A stretch of DNA of 64,000 nucleotides from an uncultured Pseudomonadales bacterium (GTDB taxonomy: Bacteria; Patescibacteriota; Microgenomatia; UBA1400; UBA12028), in NCBI GenBank assembly GCA_964635905.1, contig CAZWPK010000001.1, forward strand, positions 437,096 to 501,095, read 5' to 3'. This document shows, piece by piece, positions 6,822-19,860 of this stretch. The position numbers and the translations under genes are program-made. Position 1 is the first letter of the stretch. Each line of letters opens with the position of its first letter. The notes beneath the pieces were generated by a model. The model was given only the letters and a program-made list of their open reading frames with translations, did no database searches and was not told the origin of the DNA.

Positions 6822-7523
6822 ATGTGGAATACGCGAAGAGAGACAGTACAACCGTCAATCAGGCCTGAATGGGCAGAGTGGAAATCAAATCCACGACCTG
6901 CTGACTATTGTGATGGTATGCGCAATGCCAACACAAACCTGCTAGCTGATAGTGGATTTACACCTACATTACTGACAGTTTCATCCATGTTCTTGGAAGA
7001 CAGTCGGAACAAAGACACCTTTCTAGTCTCTCAGCTTCCGGGAATTATATGGGACGATCTTACTGTCCCGTTTTCAACTGATTTGGATATTGCGATTCAG
7101 GTTGTAGAGCAGTTTGCAGAACTTGAGCAGCGAAAATTATGCCTCTGGGATCGCCATGGAGGCAATATTTTAGTTGACCCTGAAGAGCAGAATAGAGTGT
7201 GGCAAGTTGATTTAGAAACAATCTTTGACACCTCTGTAGAGCGCTTTATGCATCAAAGTTTGCCGATGACGCACCAGGAAAGATTTCACCTACATGCCGC
7301 AAAACTAGAAACATTTGCGCTGGTTCACCCCATCAATCTTCAACTTCAAATGGTTCTGTTAACCTTGATGACAAAAAACTCGCTGGCTTACCCAGTCATG
7401 AGCAGCGAATGGAGGCGGGTGAACACGGAAATTCGGGCAGTGCTTGAACTGACGAAAGTTCTACGAGAATCAAAATTGTCATTGGTTCTAGATTCTATGC
7501 GAAATCTTCAGCAACGACTCTAA
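6822..7523 (+). CDS. protein-kinase-like-fold protein (RIO/Kdo/APH-like catalytic-loop motif)
   Basis: LWDRHGGNILVD ... VWQVDLE resembles the HxDxxxxN catalytic loop plus a downstream Asp-Leu-Glu metal-binding motif (DFG-like position) of the kinase-like fold. 233 aa. Confidence 0.4.
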   Translation: MWNTRRETVQPSIRPEWAEWKSNPRPADYCDGMRNANTNLLADSGFTPTLLTVSSMFLEDSRNKDTFLVSQLPGIIWDDLTVPFSTDLDIAIQVVEQFAELEQRKLCLWDRHGGNILVDPEEQNRVWQVDLETIFDTSVERFMHQSLPMTHQERFHLHAAKLETFALVHPINLQLQMVLLTLMTKNSLAYPVMSSEWRRVNTEIRAVLELTKVLRESKLSLVLDSMRNLQQRL

Positions 7524-14026: not shown

Positions 14027-15121
14027 CTAAAATTGTTCCAGTAATTGCAGGTCTCCGTTGTACAACATGCGAATATCATCGATATGTAAGCCCGGACGTA
14101 ACGTATACGTTCGCTCGATTCCCCAGCCGAATGCAAAGCCAGTATAGATCTCTGGATCTAGTCCTCCAGCTCGTAGGACATTGGGATGGACCATGCCTGC
14201 GCCACCCACCTCATGCCAACCCGATTTACAAAATCGACACTTTTCCCCGCTGGATAATGTGCCAGTTCCATCGCAAATCGTGCAGGAAAAATCGACTTCA
14301 AAGGAGGGTTCCGTGAACTGGAAATGAAAGGGACGAATGCGGGATTTGGCATTCGGTCCATAAAAGGAGCGCGCAAAATGATCAATCGTTCCTTTGAGGT
14401 GTTGAATGTTGATTCCCTTGTCCACCACTAACCCCTCAAACTGATGAAACATGGGGGTGTGGGTTACATCGGACTGTCGACGGTAGCAGCGGGCGATATT
14501 AATCATGCGAATAGGAGGATTTTTGAGTCGCTCCATTTCCCGAACTTGTCCGTTGGAGGTGTGCGGGGTGAGAACGACCTTGCCTCCCGCTATATCCGGA
14601 TGACGACAGCGTGGATTGATGGGATCATAGGGAATATCTTTTGTGGTTTCGGGAAGATCGATAAAGAATGTTTCCCATTCATCGCGGGCTGGATGATTGG
14701 GAGCCATGTTGAGAGACTCAAAGGCATACCAGTCCCAGTCAATTTCAGGGTACCGTACCCGCGTAAAGCCGATCTTTTCAAAAATTTGTGTGACTTCATG
14801 AATCGCTTGGGAAACGGGATGCACATGCCCAAGATTCAATTCTATCCCAGGTAGAGTGGGATCCTGCAATGTAGACGTAGCTGTAGACTCTGTGGTTTCC
14901 CCGAGTTCTTGGTTGAGCCATGTTTTTAAATCGTTGAGTGCAATCCCAGCTTCCTTGCGATCTTTGGGAGGTAATTCTTTGAGTACGTTGGTGAGTTCCT
15001 TAAACTTCCCATTCGCTCCCAGATAGGTGGAACGTTTTTGCACAGAATCCGTGGTATCGTTTGCAAAATTTCCCTTTAGCGTGGATATGGATTGGAAAAG
15101 TGTGTCAAGTGAAGTACTCAT
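14027..15121 (-). CDS. pheS: phenylalanine--tRNA ligase alpha subunit
   Basis: Class II motifs (FQFTEPSFEVD, GFAFGWGIERT). GGGAG RBS 8 nt upstream. Contains a CxxC...CxxC insertion (FSCTICDGTGTLSSGEKCRFC). Confidence 0.9.
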   Translation of the reverse strand: MSTSLDTLFQSISTLKGNFANDTTDSVQKRSTYLGANGKFKELTNVLKELPPKDRKEAGIALNDLKTWLNQELGETTESTATSTLQDPTLPGIELNLGHVHPVSQAIHEVTQIFEKIGFTRVRYPEIDWDWYAFESLNMAPNHPARDEWETFFIDLPETTKDIPYDPINPRCRHPDIAGGKVVLTPHTSNGQVREMERLKNPPIRMINIARCYRRQSDVTHTPMFHQFEGLVVDKGINIQHLKGTIDHFARSFYGPNAKSRIRPFHFQFTEPSFEVDFSCTICDGTGTLSSGEKCRFCKSGWHEVGGAGMVHPNVLRAGGLDPEIYTGFAFGWGIERTYTLRPGLHIDDIRMLYNGDLQLLEQF

Positions 15122-15360
15122 AGTCTGCTCCCGAGGCTTATGGACATCACCTGAGAAAATAAATGGGTATTTATTTCAGATAACGTTACAAATCCCTCAT
15201 ACAGAATCTTTGCATCATCGCGATTTAGTGATTCGAGTTCTGCTTTATACGATGCTGGAGTCTTATGTCTAACTTTCCAAGAAATGAAACTTAACCGCAT
15301 ATCTTCATGATCAGAAGTTGACTTCCAGTCTCTCGCGAGTGATTCCAATGTACTTGCCAT
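15118..15360 (-). CDS. hypothetical protein (80 aa) translationally coupled (ATGA overlap) to pheS
   Basis: ORF whose stop overlaps the pheS ATG. No SD upstream. Confidence 0.3.
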   Translation of the reverse strand: MASTLESLARDWKSTSDHEDMRLSFISWKVRHKTPASYKAELESLNRDDAKILYEGFVTLSEINTHLFSQVMSISLGSRL

Positions 15361-15383
15361 AGTTTCATTTTATCAGCTAATTG

Positions 15384-15410
15384 TATAAAAAAACCTCCAT
15401 CGTGTGGAGG
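15384..15410 (-). terminator. attenuator terminator hairpin (CCUCCACACGAUGGAGG + U7) of the pheST leader
   Basis: Read on the minus strand, a GC hairpin is followed by UUUUUUU. Its 5' arm can alternatively pair with an upstream UGGAGG at 15434-15439. Confidence 0.5.
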
Positions 15411-15441
15411 TCATTTGTTGTAGCACACCTTACCCTCCACA

Positions 15442-15492
15442 TTAGCGGTGGTTGGTAAAGAAAAAGCAGCTTGCTTTGTGTGCTGTATGCAT
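15442..15492 (-). CDS. pheST leader peptide (16 aa, MHTAHKASCFFFTNHR) with three consecutive Phe codons
   Basis: Short ORF atg cat aca gca cac aaa gca agc tgc ttt ttc ttt acc aac cac cgc taa lies immediately upstream of the alternative antiterminator/terminator hairpins. Analogous to E. coli pheM. Confidence 0.45.
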   Translation of the reverse strand: MHTAHKASCFFFTNHR

Positions 15493-15554
15493 ACAACCAT
15501 TATCCTATCAAAGGAACGTTCTTTTGCAAGATGAAGAATCGTGAAGGCATTAAA

Positions 15555-15585
15555 AAGGATGTGCCGATTAAACACATCCTTTCAT
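15555..15585 (-). terminator. rho-independent terminator downstream of rplT
   Basis: On the minus strand: AGGAUGUG-UUUAAUCGG-CACAUCCU followed by UUUUU. Confidence 0.55.
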
Positions 15586-15600
15586 TGTTTTCGTTGTGAT

Positions 15601-15954
15601 TTAGCCACGAACTTGGCTCACGATCTTCCCGAAGGATTTTTCGTCTTTAAGAGCAATATCTGCCAAGACCTTGCGATCAAGCAAAATATTTTTCTTTTTT
15701 AATTGATTGATAAATTCACTATAGCGAATTTTCTCATCAATGGCTTTTAAGGCTGCATTCAGACGAACGATCCACAGTTTTCGAAAATCACGCTTGCGAA
15801 GTCGTCGACCTGCGAACGCATACTGACCTGCATGCAAATCAGCTTCGATTGCAACTTTAATCAATCGGTTTTTAGTCATCCGGTACCCTTTGGTACGGGC
15901 TAAGATTTTTTTGTGGGATCGCCGTCGGGCGAATCCTGTTTTAACACGTGACAT
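15601..15954 (-). CDS. rplT: 50S ribosomal protein L20
   Basis: MSRVKTGFARRRSHKKIL... is canonical L20. Confidence 0.95.
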   Translation of the reverse strand: MSRVKTGFARRRSHKKILARTKGYRMTKNRLIKVAIEADLHAGQYAFAGRRLRKRDFRKLWIVRLNAALKAIDEKIRYSEFINQLKKKNILLDRKVLADIALKDEKSFGKIVSQVRG

Positions 15955-16001
15955 AGATGTCCTTATGTACTTTGGTTATTAAGATCTATTAATTGTTTCT
16001 G

Positions 16002-16199
16002 TTAGGCTAATCCAAGCATTTGCTTGATCTTTTTGGCGAATTTCCCTTTGACTTCGACGGGTACTCTGTAGCGTCGAATTGCCTTCTTACTCTTGTTCAT
16101 TCGAAGGTGTCGTGAGTTTTGGCGTCGTCGCATCACTTTACCGGTCGCGGTAATTTTGAAACGCTTCGCAACAATTTTACGTACTTTCTGTTTTGGCAT
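16002..16199 (-). CDS. rpmI: 50S ribosomal protein L35
   Basis: MPKQKVRKIVAKRFKITATGKV... is canonical L35. Confidence 0.95.
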   Translation of the reverse strand: MPKQKVRKIVAKRFKITATGKVMRRRQNSRHLRMNKSKKAIRRYRVPVEVKGKFAKKIKQMLGLA

Positions 16200-16207
16200 A
16201 AAGCTCC

Positions 16208-16762
16208 TTATTCTTGTGATTCTTCATTCTCTTCCGTTGTTTTGCGCTTTTTTACAGGGGCTAACTGCATAAAAGCATTTTTCCCGACTAACCGTGCGGG
16301 TGATTCCACTTTTGAGACATCATCGAGCAACTCCGTTGCTTTGGCAAAGATCGCATCGCCAAAATCCTTACGGGTGATTTCTCGACCCTTGTATTTTACT
16401 ACAAGCTTTACTTTGTCCCCACCTTCGAGATACTCTCGTGCTTTTTTGATTCGAACGTCAAAATCACCTTTGGCAATAAAGGGGGTAAACCAGATTTCTT
16501 TAAGCTCAATATTTTTACTTCTCTTTTTGTCGTCTTGCTGTTTTTGCTGTAACTGATACTTAAACTTGGCAAAATTGATCAGCTTTGCAACCGGTGGTTT
16601 TGCACTCGGAGCAACTTCCACCACATCGACATCCAGTTCCGCAGCTTTTGCCAGGGCTTCACTTTTCGTCATCACGCCCAACTGTTTTCCAAACTCATCC
16701 AGAACACGCATTTCTGATGCCTGGATAAATTGATTTACCTTAAAAAATACTTTTTTTGACAT
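16208..16762 (-). CDS. infC: translation initiation factor IF-3
   Basis: IF3 N- and C-domain motifs (VRVIDEFGKQLG..., ELKEIWF..., FAKFKYQ). Conserved thrS-infC-rpmI-rplT order. Confidence 0.9.
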   Translation of the reverse strand: MSKKVFFKVNQFIQASEMRVLDEFGKQLGVMTKSEALAKAAELDVDVVEVAPSAKPPVAKLINFAKFKYQLQQKQQDDKKRSKNIELKEIWFTPFIAKGDFDVRIKKAREYLEGGDKVKLVVKYKGREITRKDFGDAIFAKATELLDDVSKVESPARLVGKNAFMQLAPVKKRKTTEENEESQE

Positions 16763-16774
16763 GCAATCCTATCC

Positions 16775-17107
16775 TCAACGGCCAAGCCGCTTTCTTGAAG
16801 GACTTATTGTACCAAAACTCTCGACAAAAATACAGGAGAAGAGATACGTTAACAGAATATAGGCTAAAAAGAGGGTGGTGGAGTCTACCGGAGAGAGTGA
16901 TCCGGTAAAAGAATATCCCCCATCCCCTGCTCCTAAGGGTTTACTGGCCGAGGATATTTGGGTGTAGAAGAAGCGATACCAGGATGTGGGAAGGATGCCC
17001 ATGTACGCAAGTGAGCTGATCAGATAGAAAAGCAAAAAGGCAAACCAAATAGCGATCTTGGGGAGAGTCGGTTGAAGATAACGCTTGAATCGAGTGGTCA
17101 TGCGCAT
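16775..17107 (-). CDS. small membrane protein (110 aa, 2 predicted TM) inserted between thrS and infC
   Basis: ORF with two hydrophobic helices. Confidence 0.35.
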   Translation of the reverse strand: MRMTTRFKRYLQPTLPKIAIWFAFLLFYLISSLAYMGILPTSWYRFFYTQISSASKPLGAGDGGYSFTGSLSPVDSTTLFLAYILLTYLFSCIFVESFGTISPSRKRLGR

Positions 17108-17188
17108 ACAAAAACGGGTAGGAGTGCTTACGTTCCTACCCGTCTATCTTACACTTTTTCTGACTGATTTCGCAGGGGTGATCACCAA

Positions 17189-18943
17189 TTAGACTGCCAA
17201 GTCTCGATTGGCATTCTTTTCGATAAGTTGCTGTATGAATTTCTCCACTTCCCAGACCCCGCGATTGACATTTCCTCGAGCACGGACAGAAACTGTTTCT
17301 GCCTGTGCCTCTTTGTTCCCGACGACCAGCATGTACGGTATTTTTTGGTGTTCTGCCTTTCGAATACGATTTTGCATACTTTCAGCTTCATTCCAGTTTT
17401 CGACACGAATTCCAGCTGCTTGCAATTTTTCAAGTAATCCTTGGGCATATGGCTGCTGATCTTGAGAGATTGGGATGATCACGGCTTGAATGGGAGACAA
17501 CCACAGTGGGTAAGCACCGGCAAAATGCTCAATCATGAAGGCAAGGAAGCGCTCATGGACTGATAATGGAGCACGATGGATGACAAAGACTTCAGTAGAC
17601 TGCGCTCCTGATTCATCGACATACTCGAGTCCAAAACGCTTTTTTGCAGCAAAATCGAGTTGAATGGTCGACATTGTCTCTTCCCTCCCAATGGCAGATT
17701 TAAACTGCACATCCACTTTTGGACCGTAAAAAGCTGCTTCATCATCGGCTTCCACAAATTTCACATCAAGCTCTTGGAGGACTTCGCGCAGCACATTTTG
17801 ACTTAATTCCCAGTTCTCGGGCTCATCGATGTACTTTTCTGTGTTTGCGCTATCCCATTTGGATAAGCGGAACCAATAGTCCTTGAGACCAAAGATCTTA
17901 AAGTACTCCATGGTGAGCCTGAGCACGTTAGCGAATTCTTCTTTGATTTGGTCCTTTCGGGCATAAATGTGGGCATCGTTCATACTCATGCCGCGGACAC
18001 GCAAGAGCCCTGCCAGGGCCCCAGACAACTCATTGCGGTAGCAGGTGCCATATTCTGCAATGCGCATGGGAAGCTCTTTGTAGCTTCGAGGCGTATGCTG
18101 GAAGATCCGATGATGATGCGGACAGTTCATAGCTTTGAGATAATAGGTTCCATCATCCATGACCATGGGTGGATACATACTATCTTTGTAGTATGGCAAG
18201 TGACCGGACGTTAGAAAGAGCTCTTCTTTGGCAATATGGGGGGTCGCCACGCGCACATACCCGGCCTTTGCTTCTTGCTCCTTGGCGAGTTTTTCCACTT
18301 GATCGCGTAGGATTGTGCCGTTGGGAAGCCACATAATGAGACCCTTGCCCACCATCTCATCGATGAAGAAGAGCTCTTGGTCTTTTCCGATTTTTCGGTG
18401 ATCGCGCTTCTTGGCTTCTTCTAGCATTGTTAGATGGGCGTCTAATTCTTTTTGCGACGAGAAACAGGTTCCATAGATACGTGTAAGCATGGCGTTCTTC
18501 TCACTACCGCGCCAATAGGCACCAGCAACGGAAAGCAGCTTGAAATAGCGGAGCTCTTCATCAGGATGTTCTACATGTCCTCCTCGACACAAGTCAGAAT
18601 AGTCTCCCGACGTGTACATGGATAAGACCTCACCTTTAGTGGCAAATTCTTCGATCAATTCCTGTTTATACGGGTTATCCTGGTATTCGTTCTTGGCTTC
18701 ATCTACCGAGACTTCCTGACGGGAGAAATCCTTCCAGGTTTTGGCGATGGCATGCATCCGTTCTTCAATAGCTGGAAAATCACTTTCCGAGATCGGTTTC
18801 TCAAATTCAAAGTCAAAATAGAATCCTGAATCGATGGCTGGACCAATCGTACGCTTGGTTGTTGGCCAGAGATCCATGACTGCTGCTGCAAGTAAATGTG
18901 CGCAGGAGTGGCGTAGATATTCGAGATATAGTTCTTTTTTCAT
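17189..18943 (-). CDS. thrS: threonine--tRNA ligase (compact form lacking the N-terminal TGS domain)
   Basis: HSCAHLLA second-domain motif. Class II catalytic core and anticodon-binding domain. AAAGGA RBS. Confidence 0.9.
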   Translation of the reverse strand: MKKELYLEYLRHSCAHLLAAAVMDLWPTTKRTIGPAIDSGFYFDFEFEKPISESDFPAIEERMHAIAKTWKDFSRQEVSVDEAKNEYQDNPYKQELIEEFATKGEVLSMYTSGDYSDLCRGGHVEHPDEELRYFKLLSVAGAYWRGSEKNAMLTRIYGTCFSSQKELDAHLTMLEEAKKRDHRKIGKDQELFFIDEMVGKGLIMWLPNGTILRDQVEKLAKEQEAKAGYVRVATPHIAKEELFLTSGHLPYYKDSMYPPMVMDDGTYYLKAMNCPHHHRIFQHTPRSYKELPMRIAEYGTCYRNELSGALAGLLRVRGMSMNDAHIYARKDQIKEEFANVLRLTMEYFKIFGLKDYWFRLSKWDSANTEKYIDEPENWELSQNVLREVLQELDVKFVEADDEAAFYGPKVDVQFKSAIGREETMSTIQLDFAAKKRFGLEYVDESGAQSTEVFVIHRAPLSVHERFLAFMIEHFAGAYPLWLSPIQAVIIPISQDQQPYAQGLLEKLQAAGIRVENWNEAESMQNRIRKAEHQKIPYMLVVGNKEAQAETVSVRARGNVNRGVWEVEKFIQQLIEKNANRDLAV

Positions 18944-18969
18944 AGTGTCCTTTATAGACTATTCCTCAA

Positions 18970-19290
18970 TTACTGTTGGCTTGGAGAAGTACGGGCCTGA
19001 GGAAAGAATCCCGCCTGCTCCAATGTAGTTCGGGTTACAGTCAAAATCGTTGAGAGTCGCGGTGCAATCAACTGTGCGATGAGGACGGAAAGTAAAAAAC
19101 CCATCAAGAGTGTTGCCATCACACCGCCAAGCCCTGCCATGAATCCTGCAAAGAAGTGACGTTTCGCAATTTCCTTATATGAGACAACAAAAATGCTGGG
19201 TTGCTCTCTATATTGTGCTGGTTGTTCGACTTTTTTTGTCGTTTTCATACAAAAAAACCACGCTGTCTTTTGTTCCAAATGTTCCAACAA
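18970..19290 (-). CDS. small single-TM membrane protein (106 aa); paralog of the ORF at 19867-20202
   Basis: Shared motif RxxFxAGxMxGLGG followed by a TM helix, present in both ORFs. Confidence 0.4.
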   Translation of the reverse strand: MLEHLEQKTAWFFCMKTTKKVEQPAQYREQPSIFVVSYKEIAKRHFFAGFMAGLGGVMATLLMGFLLSVLIAQLIAPRLSTILTVTRTTLEQAGFFPQARTSPSQQ

Positions 19291-19428
19291 AAGATCCGGT
19301 GGTCTTACTTCACTCCCGTTCGCAGGGAGTCAGCGTCTTATGCCCTGGGTGGTGAGTCCAGAAAGAGATGAATCTAAGAGCAAGTATACAATATTTGGGA
19401 GTGATTGGATAGATTCTATCGATCCTTT

Positions 19429-19860
19429 TTAGAAACGAAATTGCTTACGAAGTGTTGACATCAGATTACGAGCATTAAAGTCCTTGTCTGTAGCTTCATT
19501 AACAGTAGCGATGATTCGTTCCAAAAATACTCCGGTTCGTGTGGATTCTCCTGGATCAAGAGGAAACATTAAATATGACACGCTGGTCTCTGTGGGTGTT
19601 TCGGGATTAATAGGAAACATTATGAATGACACACCTTTACGAAGGAGAGCATCGAGGGACTGAATAACAGAGTCAATACTAGTGGGATTTTGCTCCAACA
19701 AAAGAAGTCCAGTAAGCGCGTTTTTAGCTTCTAGTAAACGATCATCATACACAACTGTACCATCAACTTTTTGAAAACTAGTCTGACGAACAAAATCAAC
19801 AACCTCTTCTAGAGCAATCACTGGTTTTTCCATAGACTTATAGTATACACCTTGAGGCAA
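19429..19860 (-). CDS. hypothetical protein (143 aa) with an internal repeat (SFIMFPINPE / SYLMFPLDPG)
   Basis: ORF flanked by the two paralogous membrane ORFs. Confidence 0.4.
   Translation of the reverse strand: MPQGVYYKSMEKPVIALEEVVDFVRQTSFQKVDGTVVYDDRLLEAKNALTGLLLLEQNPTSIDSVIQSLDALLRKGVSFIMFPINPETPTETSVSYLMFPLDPGESTRTGVFLERIIATVNEATDKDFNARNLMSTLRKQFRF

Follow-up and report, generated by a model that had tools for sequence, protein, structure and literature searches.

A short leader upstream of pheS and pheT in a bacterium of the Candidate Phyla Radiation (CPR, or Patescibacteria) is very likely a ribosome-mediated Phe leader-peptide transcription attenuator, which would sense charged tRNA-Phe and gate transcription into ORF80, pheS and pheT. 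We give this reading a probability of about 85%. The leader lies on the minus strand of a 64,000-nt stretch of contig CAZWPK010000001.1 (GenBank assembly GCA_964635905.1, positions 437,096 to 501,095), and this whole stretch is called the window below. Such an attenuator had been proposed in an earlier note made from the letters of the window alone, and the proposal is supported by folding, by the architecture shared with relatives, by a covariance model built from relatives only and by co-variation of the antiterminator strands.

Leader elements and proposed mechanism

The genes on the minus strand follow the order thrS, an unassigned open reading frame (ORF), infC, rpmI, rplT, an intergenic region, ORF80, pheS and pheT, and the element sits between rplT and ORF80-pheS-pheT. 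The earlier note had placed it upstream of pheS-pheT; both genes do lie downstream, but the first ORF past the leader is the orphan ORF80. The parts of the leader are as follows, where MFE is the minimum free energy structure and the regions are numbered as in a classical attenuator.

15524-15529, minus strand: putative -35-like hexamer TTGCAA, from the sequence
15502-15510, minus strand: putative extended -10-like element TGaTAGGAT, from the sequence and the family pattern
15442-15492, minus strand: leader ORF MHTAHKASCFFFTNHR, 16 codons plus a UAA stop (ATG 15492-15490, stop 15444-15442), from the sequence
15457-15465, minus strand: regulatory codons UUU UUC UUU (Phe10-12), from the sequence
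15448-15459, minus strand: region 1, UUUACC AA CCAC, that is, the last Phe codon plus the Thr-Asn-His codons, from the MFE
15429-15440, minus strand: region 2, GUGGAGGGUAAG, which can form either the 3' strand of the 1:2 helix or the 5' strand of the antiterminator, from folding
15404-15412, minus strand: region 3, GACCUCCAC, serving either as 5' arm of the terminator or as 3' strand of the antiterminator, from the terminator scan and folding
15387-15399, minus strand: region 4 and tail, UGGAGG (15399-15394) followed by U7 (15393-15387), from the sequence and the scan

Reading of the sequence found the mini-ORF, the Phe triplet, UGGAGG, CCUCCA, the terminator and U7 all where the earlier note had put them. 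Only its range for U7 (15384-15400) was loose, including the right bases but extending beyond the actual run. GUGGAGG (15440-15434), in which UGGAGG occupies 15439-15434, begins 2 nt past the leader stop, and the complementary CCUCCA is at 15410-15405 (CCUCCAC, 15410-15404). The consensus scan called the terminator as GACCUCCA-CACGA-UGGAGGUU at 15412-15392, with a 5-nt loop and a stem of 8 pairs, of which 4 are G-C; the first two U of U7 also close the stem. A detector was set to find runs of three or more TTY codons that are followed by a stop in frame no more than 10 codons on and then, 5-90 nt later, by an intrinsic terminator. On both strands of the 64-kb window it returned exactly one site, namely the pheST leader. 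The single detector site and the stable fold described below mean that the leader arrangement is more than chance. As for the start of the leader ORF, an alternative ATG at 15500 was rejected; it opens a 29-codon ORF without the Phe run and lies 1 nt past the -10-like box.

In the proposed mechanism, transcription would start a few nt before the leader AUG, from TTGCAA-16-TGaTAGGAT, and the 16-codon ORF would be translated from a leaderless or near-leaderless transcript. When Phe-tRNA is plentiful, the ribosome would reach UAA and its footprint would cover GUGGAGG of region 2; CCUCCAC of region 3 would then pair with UGGAGG of region 4, and this hairpin with U7 would end the transcript at about 105 nt. 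Under a shortage of Phe-tRNA, the ribosome would stall with a codon of UUU UUC UUU in the A site, covering region 1 and leaving region 2 free. The free region 2 would pair with region 3, the terminator would be blocked and RNA polymerase would continue into pheST. A leader free of ribosomes would form both the 1:2 pairing and the terminator, which would make termination the default-off state.

Alternative RNA structures

The 121-nt leader folds with -39.5 kcal/mol (z = -3.97), and none of 200 shuffled sequences was as stable. When the whole leader is folded, both the MFE and the centroid contain the 1:2 helix plus the terminator 3:4; in the 1:2 helix, UUUACC..CCAC (15459-15448) pairs with GUGG..GGUAAG (15440-15429). 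The footprint geometry of the ribosome is well established and was used to mask the RNA, which was taken as covered up to 12 nt beyond the first base of the A-site codon. With the ribosome stalled at the first Phe codon, the MFE was the antiterminator at -21.0 kcal/mol with zero terminator pairs, and at the last Phe codon it was again the antiterminator, at -16.6 kcal/mol and likewise with zero terminator pairs. The helix in these stalled masks is UGUGGAGG:CCUCCACA. A ribosome placed at the stop codon hides region 2, and the RNA then folds into the terminator. With region 2 left free, the antiterminator (-16.6 kcal/mol) is more stable than any structure containing the terminator, the best of which has -14.1 kcal/mol.

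Folding with and without the leader masked had been suggested in the earlier note as a check, and the structures do switch between antiterminator and terminator. The competition between the UGGAGG-CCUCCA antiterminator and the terminator is thus borne out by the masked folds, as well as by the locus-specific complementarity described in the next section. The two-structure model of the note holds for these two hairpins but omits the 1:2 pairing; all three classical structures, 1:2, 2:3 and 3:4, were obtained by folding the window leader, so the layout is the full three-hairpin one.

Conservation and co-variation in relatives

Scans with PheS over species-representative genomes and metagenomes led only to Patescibacteria (CPR) of the Pacebacteria/Woesebacteria/Microgenomates type, and no closer relative, above 70% PheS identity, was found in the genome and metagenome collections. 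A Logan contig from SRR8893624 carries the gene for an identical PheS. The comparative set consisted of 160 PheS loci of Patescibacteria (1.03 Mb), scanned on both strands. These loci hold 29 ATG-initiated units of FFF, stop and terminator, every one upstream of pheS and on the pheS strand; the opposite strand gave 0 ATG-initiated units and eight weak hits without a start codon. The conservation that the earlier note asked for in related genomes is therefore present, the mini-ORF and terminator recurring upstream of pheS with arms that co-vary.

The leader peptides are alike only in the Phe run (MLVARTNQFFFTFQP, MNQYFKNYFFFFTTL, MTLTLNTFFFFTSI, MTVQLTSTSFFFFSHC, MTAIQKTYSAFFFTS, MINLASQFSFFFFSL, MKFFFFSGFFGNIS) and unrelated outside it, as is expected of leader peptides. 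The leader ORFs of the relatives have 3-7 Phe within 11-25 codons, and in most of them the Phe run ends 2-4 codons before the stop. Some have a tail of up to 10 codons, and in these long-tailed leaders the antiterminator strand falls inside the end of the ORF. The motif UUUUUCUUU is found in 18 of 28 family leaders. In the 28 leaders listed, the Phe run is never made of UUU only, each having at least one UUC that interrupts the run of U; such interruptions may prevent the slippage or premature termination expected at a long U tract.

At the stop or just past it lies a G-rich segment that can pair with the terminator arm of its own locus, and the two vary together from lineage to lineage, as in GGAGG/CCUCC, GCGGGG/CCCCGC and GGGGAG/CUCCCC. 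Complementarity was measured by a register-free duplex test, in which own-locus and cross-locus combinations of 28 distinct leaders were compared by permutation. The 2:3 duplex had -12.25 kcal/mol within loci versus -8.77 kcal/mol across loci (p<5e-5), and -6.72±0.45 kcal/mol when region 2 was shuffled. The 1:2 pairing behaved in the same way (-10.34 versus -8.25 kcal/mol, p<5e-5).

A covariance model (R1) was made from 27 relatives with a hand-specified terminator as its structure, the window being left out. In the window it matched 15384-15492 on the minus strand with 46.7 bits and E=3.4e-7, over model positions 1-112 of 112; the next-best match had E=0.21, so the leader is the only significant site. 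Over the 160 loci it gave 57 matches at E<0.01, all on the pheS strand, and it also recovered weaker variants that have fewer Phe codons, such as ...QKFFKRRAG and ...IIFQNFLMKENAG. In the alignment derived from the model, 83% of the cells of the terminator helix are paired and 5 of 6 pairs show double changes, with 0 of 500 shuffles as good. A plain MAFFT alignment of the 27 leaders does not bring the stems into register, so that RNAalifold obtained no consensus structure from it, and the covariance model and the register-free duplex tests were used instead.

Promoter and translation start

We infer the transcription start from promoter-like hexamers. TTGCAA and TAGGAT are spaced by 16 nt, and TAGGAT ends 9 nt before the leader AUG. 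The leader ORF has no convincing Shine-Dalgarno sequence before it, and the AGGA located 10 nt upstream of the AUG overlaps this -10-like hexamer. The AGGAT that the earlier note took for a Shine-Dalgarno (SD) sequence is therefore more likely part of the -10 box, and SD-like 4-mers at -18 to -4 occur in only 2 of 28 family leaders. Among strong sigma70-like sites within 40 nt upstream of leader AUGs, 12 of 13 end 6-11 nt before the AUG, and a strong site in this position is present in 12 of the 28 family leaders, for example TTGACA-17-TACAAT-9-ATG (L070), TTGACA-17-TAAGAT-8-ATG (L035) and TGgTATAAT-7-ATG (L012). Because AGGAT coincides with the -10-like box and the family shows this pattern of promoters and SD sequences, the mini-ORF is probably translated from a leaderless or near-leaderless transcript, which is likelier than an SD-dependent start.

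In other members of the family, the leader AUG lies 1-3 nt past the stop of the upstream ORF or overlaps it (rplT, where checked), which suggests re-initiation. With regard to the window as a whole, 13 of 46 long ORFs carry an SD-like 4-mer at -18 to -4, the background being 12%. Several ORFs of the window have a -10-like hexamer (TATAAT, TACAAT, TAAAAT, TAGTCT) ending 6-9 nt before the start codon, for example those starting at 6822, 31032(-), 36197(-), 56825 and 61589(-). These sequences suggest that leaderless mRNAs are common in this genome.

Alternative explanations

Several points weigh against the attenuator. The promoter pair is weak, with 8 of 12 consensus matches, and being below the threshold of the consensus scan it was not called. 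We assume that initiation on a transcript starting 1-3 nt before the AUG is efficient, and translation could conceivably start from an SD sequence instead, on RNA that reads through from rplT. The leader carries only three Phe codons, and its antiterminator, which has a 22-nt loop, is no longer than 7-8 bp. For several relatives the MFE keeps the terminator under all masks, and for these a kinetic argument is needed. The same masked-fold test on the experimentally established pheM leader of E. coli also left the terminator in the MFE with no switch, so the test is conservative: positives are meaningful and negatives uninformative. Column by column, the covariation of the antiterminator is modest (63% paired, a score reached by 2 of 500 shuffles), because its strand is out of register between lineages. 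Finally, the best relative has about 70% PheS identity, which precludes a fine-scale substitution analysis of the window leader.

The switch could be real and yet be set by a trans-acting factor, namely uncharged tRNA-Phe in a T-box-like manner, ribosomal protein L20 or PheRS, and this we consider very improbable. The element adjoins rplT, whose product autoregulates via RNA binding in other bacteria. Many Gram-positive bacteria control genes of aminoacyl-tRNA synthetases (aaRS) by T-boxes (PMC1262725). The earlier note had likewise stated that this organism uses T-box leaders for other aaRS genes, but Rfam finds none in the window: RF00230 has no match in the whole window at the gathering score, and none at E<=10 in 14900-19400 or in 19150-19650, upstream of thrS. 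An L20 leader is also missing from the Rfam matches even at E<=10, and 16 related loci gave no Phe_leader, T-box or L20-leader match. T-box leaders do resemble the window leader in sensing tRNA charging for an aaRS gene through the choice between terminator and antiterminator. Unlike them, the window leader, only about 105 nt long, has no Stem I, specifier loop or T-box sequence, and its sensing would go through translation rather than direct binding of tRNA. Moreover, all that is conserved across relatives is a Phe run in frame with the start and near the stop, and a stop beside region 2. These features matter only if the ORF is translated.

Slightly less probable again is a constitutive terminator or insulator between transcription units, in which case the FFF mini-ORF and the upstream complement would be there by chance and without regulatory function. 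Intrinsic terminators are indeed common between rplT and pheS in relatives, even where the mini-ORF is missing, and the three Phe codons and the weak promoter match would fit such an insulator. Chance, however, hardly explains that the ORF plus terminator unit stands upstream of pheS in dozens of divergent genomes and on one strand only, that a model built without the window finds the leader at E=3.4e-7 and that the post-stop segment co-varies with the terminator arm. In addition, a constitutive terminator with no promoter before pheS would silence the essential pheST operon. Least probable of all, the mini-ORF would be the gene for a functional small hydrophobic peptide and the hairpin its mere terminator; the position of the ORF is conserved and leader peptides can act in trans, as does peTrpL (PMC7298713), but only the Phe run of the peptide is conserved, its length varies from 11 to 25 residues and a coding role leaves the conserved RNA complementarities around the stop codon unexplained.

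Comparison with known systems

The attenuator proposed here resembles E. coli pheM of the pheST-ihfA operon, which occupies the same slot (thrS-infC-rpmI-rplT-leader-pheS-pheT) and regulates the same operon. In both, a run of Phe codons precedes the stop of a short ORF by a few codons. In E. coli, the post-stop GGAGGCU is complementary to the terminator arm AGCCUCC, which is followed by a U-tract, and the window leader has the same design. The two differ in the number of Phe codons, three in the window versus five in pheM, and in the position of the promoter-like hexamers, which are at least about 30 nt upstream of the AUG in E. coli, whereas the -10-like box of the window ends 9 nt before it. 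Unlike the E. coli operon, the window has an orphan ORF between attenuator and pheS, and its host belongs to the Patescibacteria (CPR).

The earlier note had called the mechanism pheM-type. This is right as to design and slot, but membership in the Rfam family RF01859 (Phe_leader) is not detectable: RF01859 has no match in the window at its gathering score of 55 bits, and none at E<=10 in 14900-19400. As a positive control, the same model scores 75 bits on E. coli pheM. Conversely, our CPR model R1 does not match E. coli pheM. The window element would work like pheM, and the sequences are too short to decide between homology and convergence.

For Deinococcus deserti, leaderless leader peptides have been predicted before aaRS and amino-acid genes (PMC4007540), and for Streptomyces, attenuators of trpS and leuS have been reported (PMC1262725). 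These cases are similar to ours in that the mini-ORF, which lacks an SD sequence and is rich in codons for the cognate amino acid, starts at the 5' end of the transcript or about a nucleotide from it, precedes an aaRS gene and would, as predicted, work by transcription attenuation. They differ in that their starts are mapped transcription start sites, whereas the start in the window comes from promoter-like hexamers. They also concern other phyla and other amino acids, and the passages of PMC4007540 and PMC1262725 consulted contain no pheST case. Since leaderless leader peptides have been reported for Deinococcus (PMC4007540), the leaderless principle is not new.

Significance

The class of mechanism is known, from E. 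coli pheM and from the leaderless leader peptides of Deinococcus; what is new is the phylum and a family that is absent from Rfam. In the literature we found no description of leader-peptide attenuation in CPR/Patescibacteria, our coverage being incomplete and thus no proof of absence. The genomes of CPR bacteria are tiny, their supply of amino acids is believed to depend on partner organisms, and their gene regulation is poorly known. A conserved Phe attenuator would imply that at least one CPR lineage monitors the charging of tRNA-Phe via translation, in the manner of enterobacteria. With 57 of the 160 sampled loci at E<0.01, the family is large, and it is diverse enough for co-variation analysis; it could become a new cis-regulatory family, and its model could improve the annotation of CPR genomes. 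The leaders, short and self-contained, could also be used to test leaderless translation and to study how attenuators evolve beside rplT. That the position is the same as in E. coli pheM raises the question of ancient origin or convergence.

Variants in relatives

In a set of 51 distinct PheS loci that lack the FFF mini-ORF, the final codons of rplT together with its stop can pair with the following terminator, over its 5' arm and loop, for example AAAGUGCGGGGNUAA (K-V-R-G-stop) against the terminator ACCCCGCAC. The terminator lies 18-37 nt after the end of rplT, and the stretch from the 3' end of rplT to this terminator is about 60-130 nt upstream of pheS. The duplex at the rplT stop has -11.9 kcal/mol within loci versus -9.7 kcal/mol across the 51 loci (p<2e-4), and -6.7 kcal/mol when shuffled. 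Co-varying examples are GCUGGUGGGUAA/ACCCCACCAAGC at L010 and GGCGGGAUU/AACCCGCC at L038. The arrangement is found at L002, L003, L005, L010, L018, L027, L029, L043, L048, L056 and others, and the window is not among these. In such relatives, rplT itself may be the leader ORF, acting through an antiterminator that overlaps its stop codon.

These variants raise a possibility, which we regard as tentative and rather doubtful, that a translation-coupled rplT/pheST gate extends throughout the lineage of Microgenomates-type CPR, with the Phe leader as one of its forms. The forms may be a stand-alone leaderless FFF mini-ORF as in the window, a mini-ORF whose AUG abuts the rplT stop, and, in many relatives, the rplT-stop antiterminator. 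If so, the element would record a classical attenuator born from, or decaying into, an antiterminator that overlaps a stop codon, and CPR bacteria, which have few known regulators, would possess a general read-out of translation speed.

Two other arrangements were observed among the relatives. In a Woesebacteria metagenome-assembled genome (L004), the leader MTNHKTNNNFFFFFFNSSLKEVVGI and its terminator (656-785) precede a prephenate dehydratase gene (799-1536; PF00800, 3.2e-25), which is followed by a 69-aa ORF and then pheS. This is a putative analogue of pheA/pheL fused into a pheS unit in a CPR genome. At four loci (L026:3236-5041, L075:3230-5038, L109:1739-3541 and L121:1727-3532), PheS is about 600 aa long, with an N-terminal extension of ~280 aa that includes an AlaRS-type segment (the C-terminal part of PF01411) joined to a normal PheS, and the Phe leader is directly upstream of the fused long pheS gene in all four.

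Gene order and downstream genes

The genes and the second hairpin around the leader are as follows.

17189-18943, minus strand: thrS, from Pfam
15601-15954, minus strand: rplT, with its stop codon at 15603-15601
about 15551-15583, minus strand: post-rplT hairpin and U-run, GAAAGGAUGUG-loop-CACAUCCUUUUU, from sequence and fold
15118-15360, minus strand: ORF80, 80 codons, first ORF past the attenuator, no Pfam match
14027-15121, minus strand: pheS, Pfam PF01409 (3.3e-75) and PF02912
12002-14023, minus strand: pheT, 673 aa, Pfam B3_4, B5, tRNA_synthFbeta and FDX-ACB

The post-rplT hairpin has a 13-bp stem and folds with -15.8 kcal/mol; the consensus terminator scan did not flag it. It is probably the rplT terminator, separating the leader from the upstream operon.

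ORF80 is placed between the attenuator's terminator and pheS, and its stop overlaps the pheS start (AUGA). Among 5.8 billion proteins it had no homologue except itself, Pfam gave no match and it shows no similarity to the small ORFs at the same position in relatives; we treat it as an orphan ORF and a candidate gene. The relatives have unrelated ORFs of 55-111 codons in this slot, several of them overlapping or abutting the pheS start, and the slot between attenuator and pheS looks like a fast-evolving position for small ORFs.

Another region of possible interest lies upstream of a 92-codon ORF (18970-19248) and thrS, at about 19255-19440 on the minus strand. A long hairpin there ends in GCGUGGU plus U7 (about 19310-19255, minus strand), and it is preceded by a TTG-initiated mini-ORF candidate with ACC ACC (Thr-Thr). 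The fold z-score of this region is only -1.05 and Rfam gave no match to it at E<=10. It may be another leader, or just a terminator. As for the proteins of the locus, PheT is a short protein of 673 aa in which the first Pfam domain (B3_4) begins at residue 106, and ThrRS has 584 aa with no Pfam match to a TGS domain; both are consistent with the reduced proteins of CPR bacteria.

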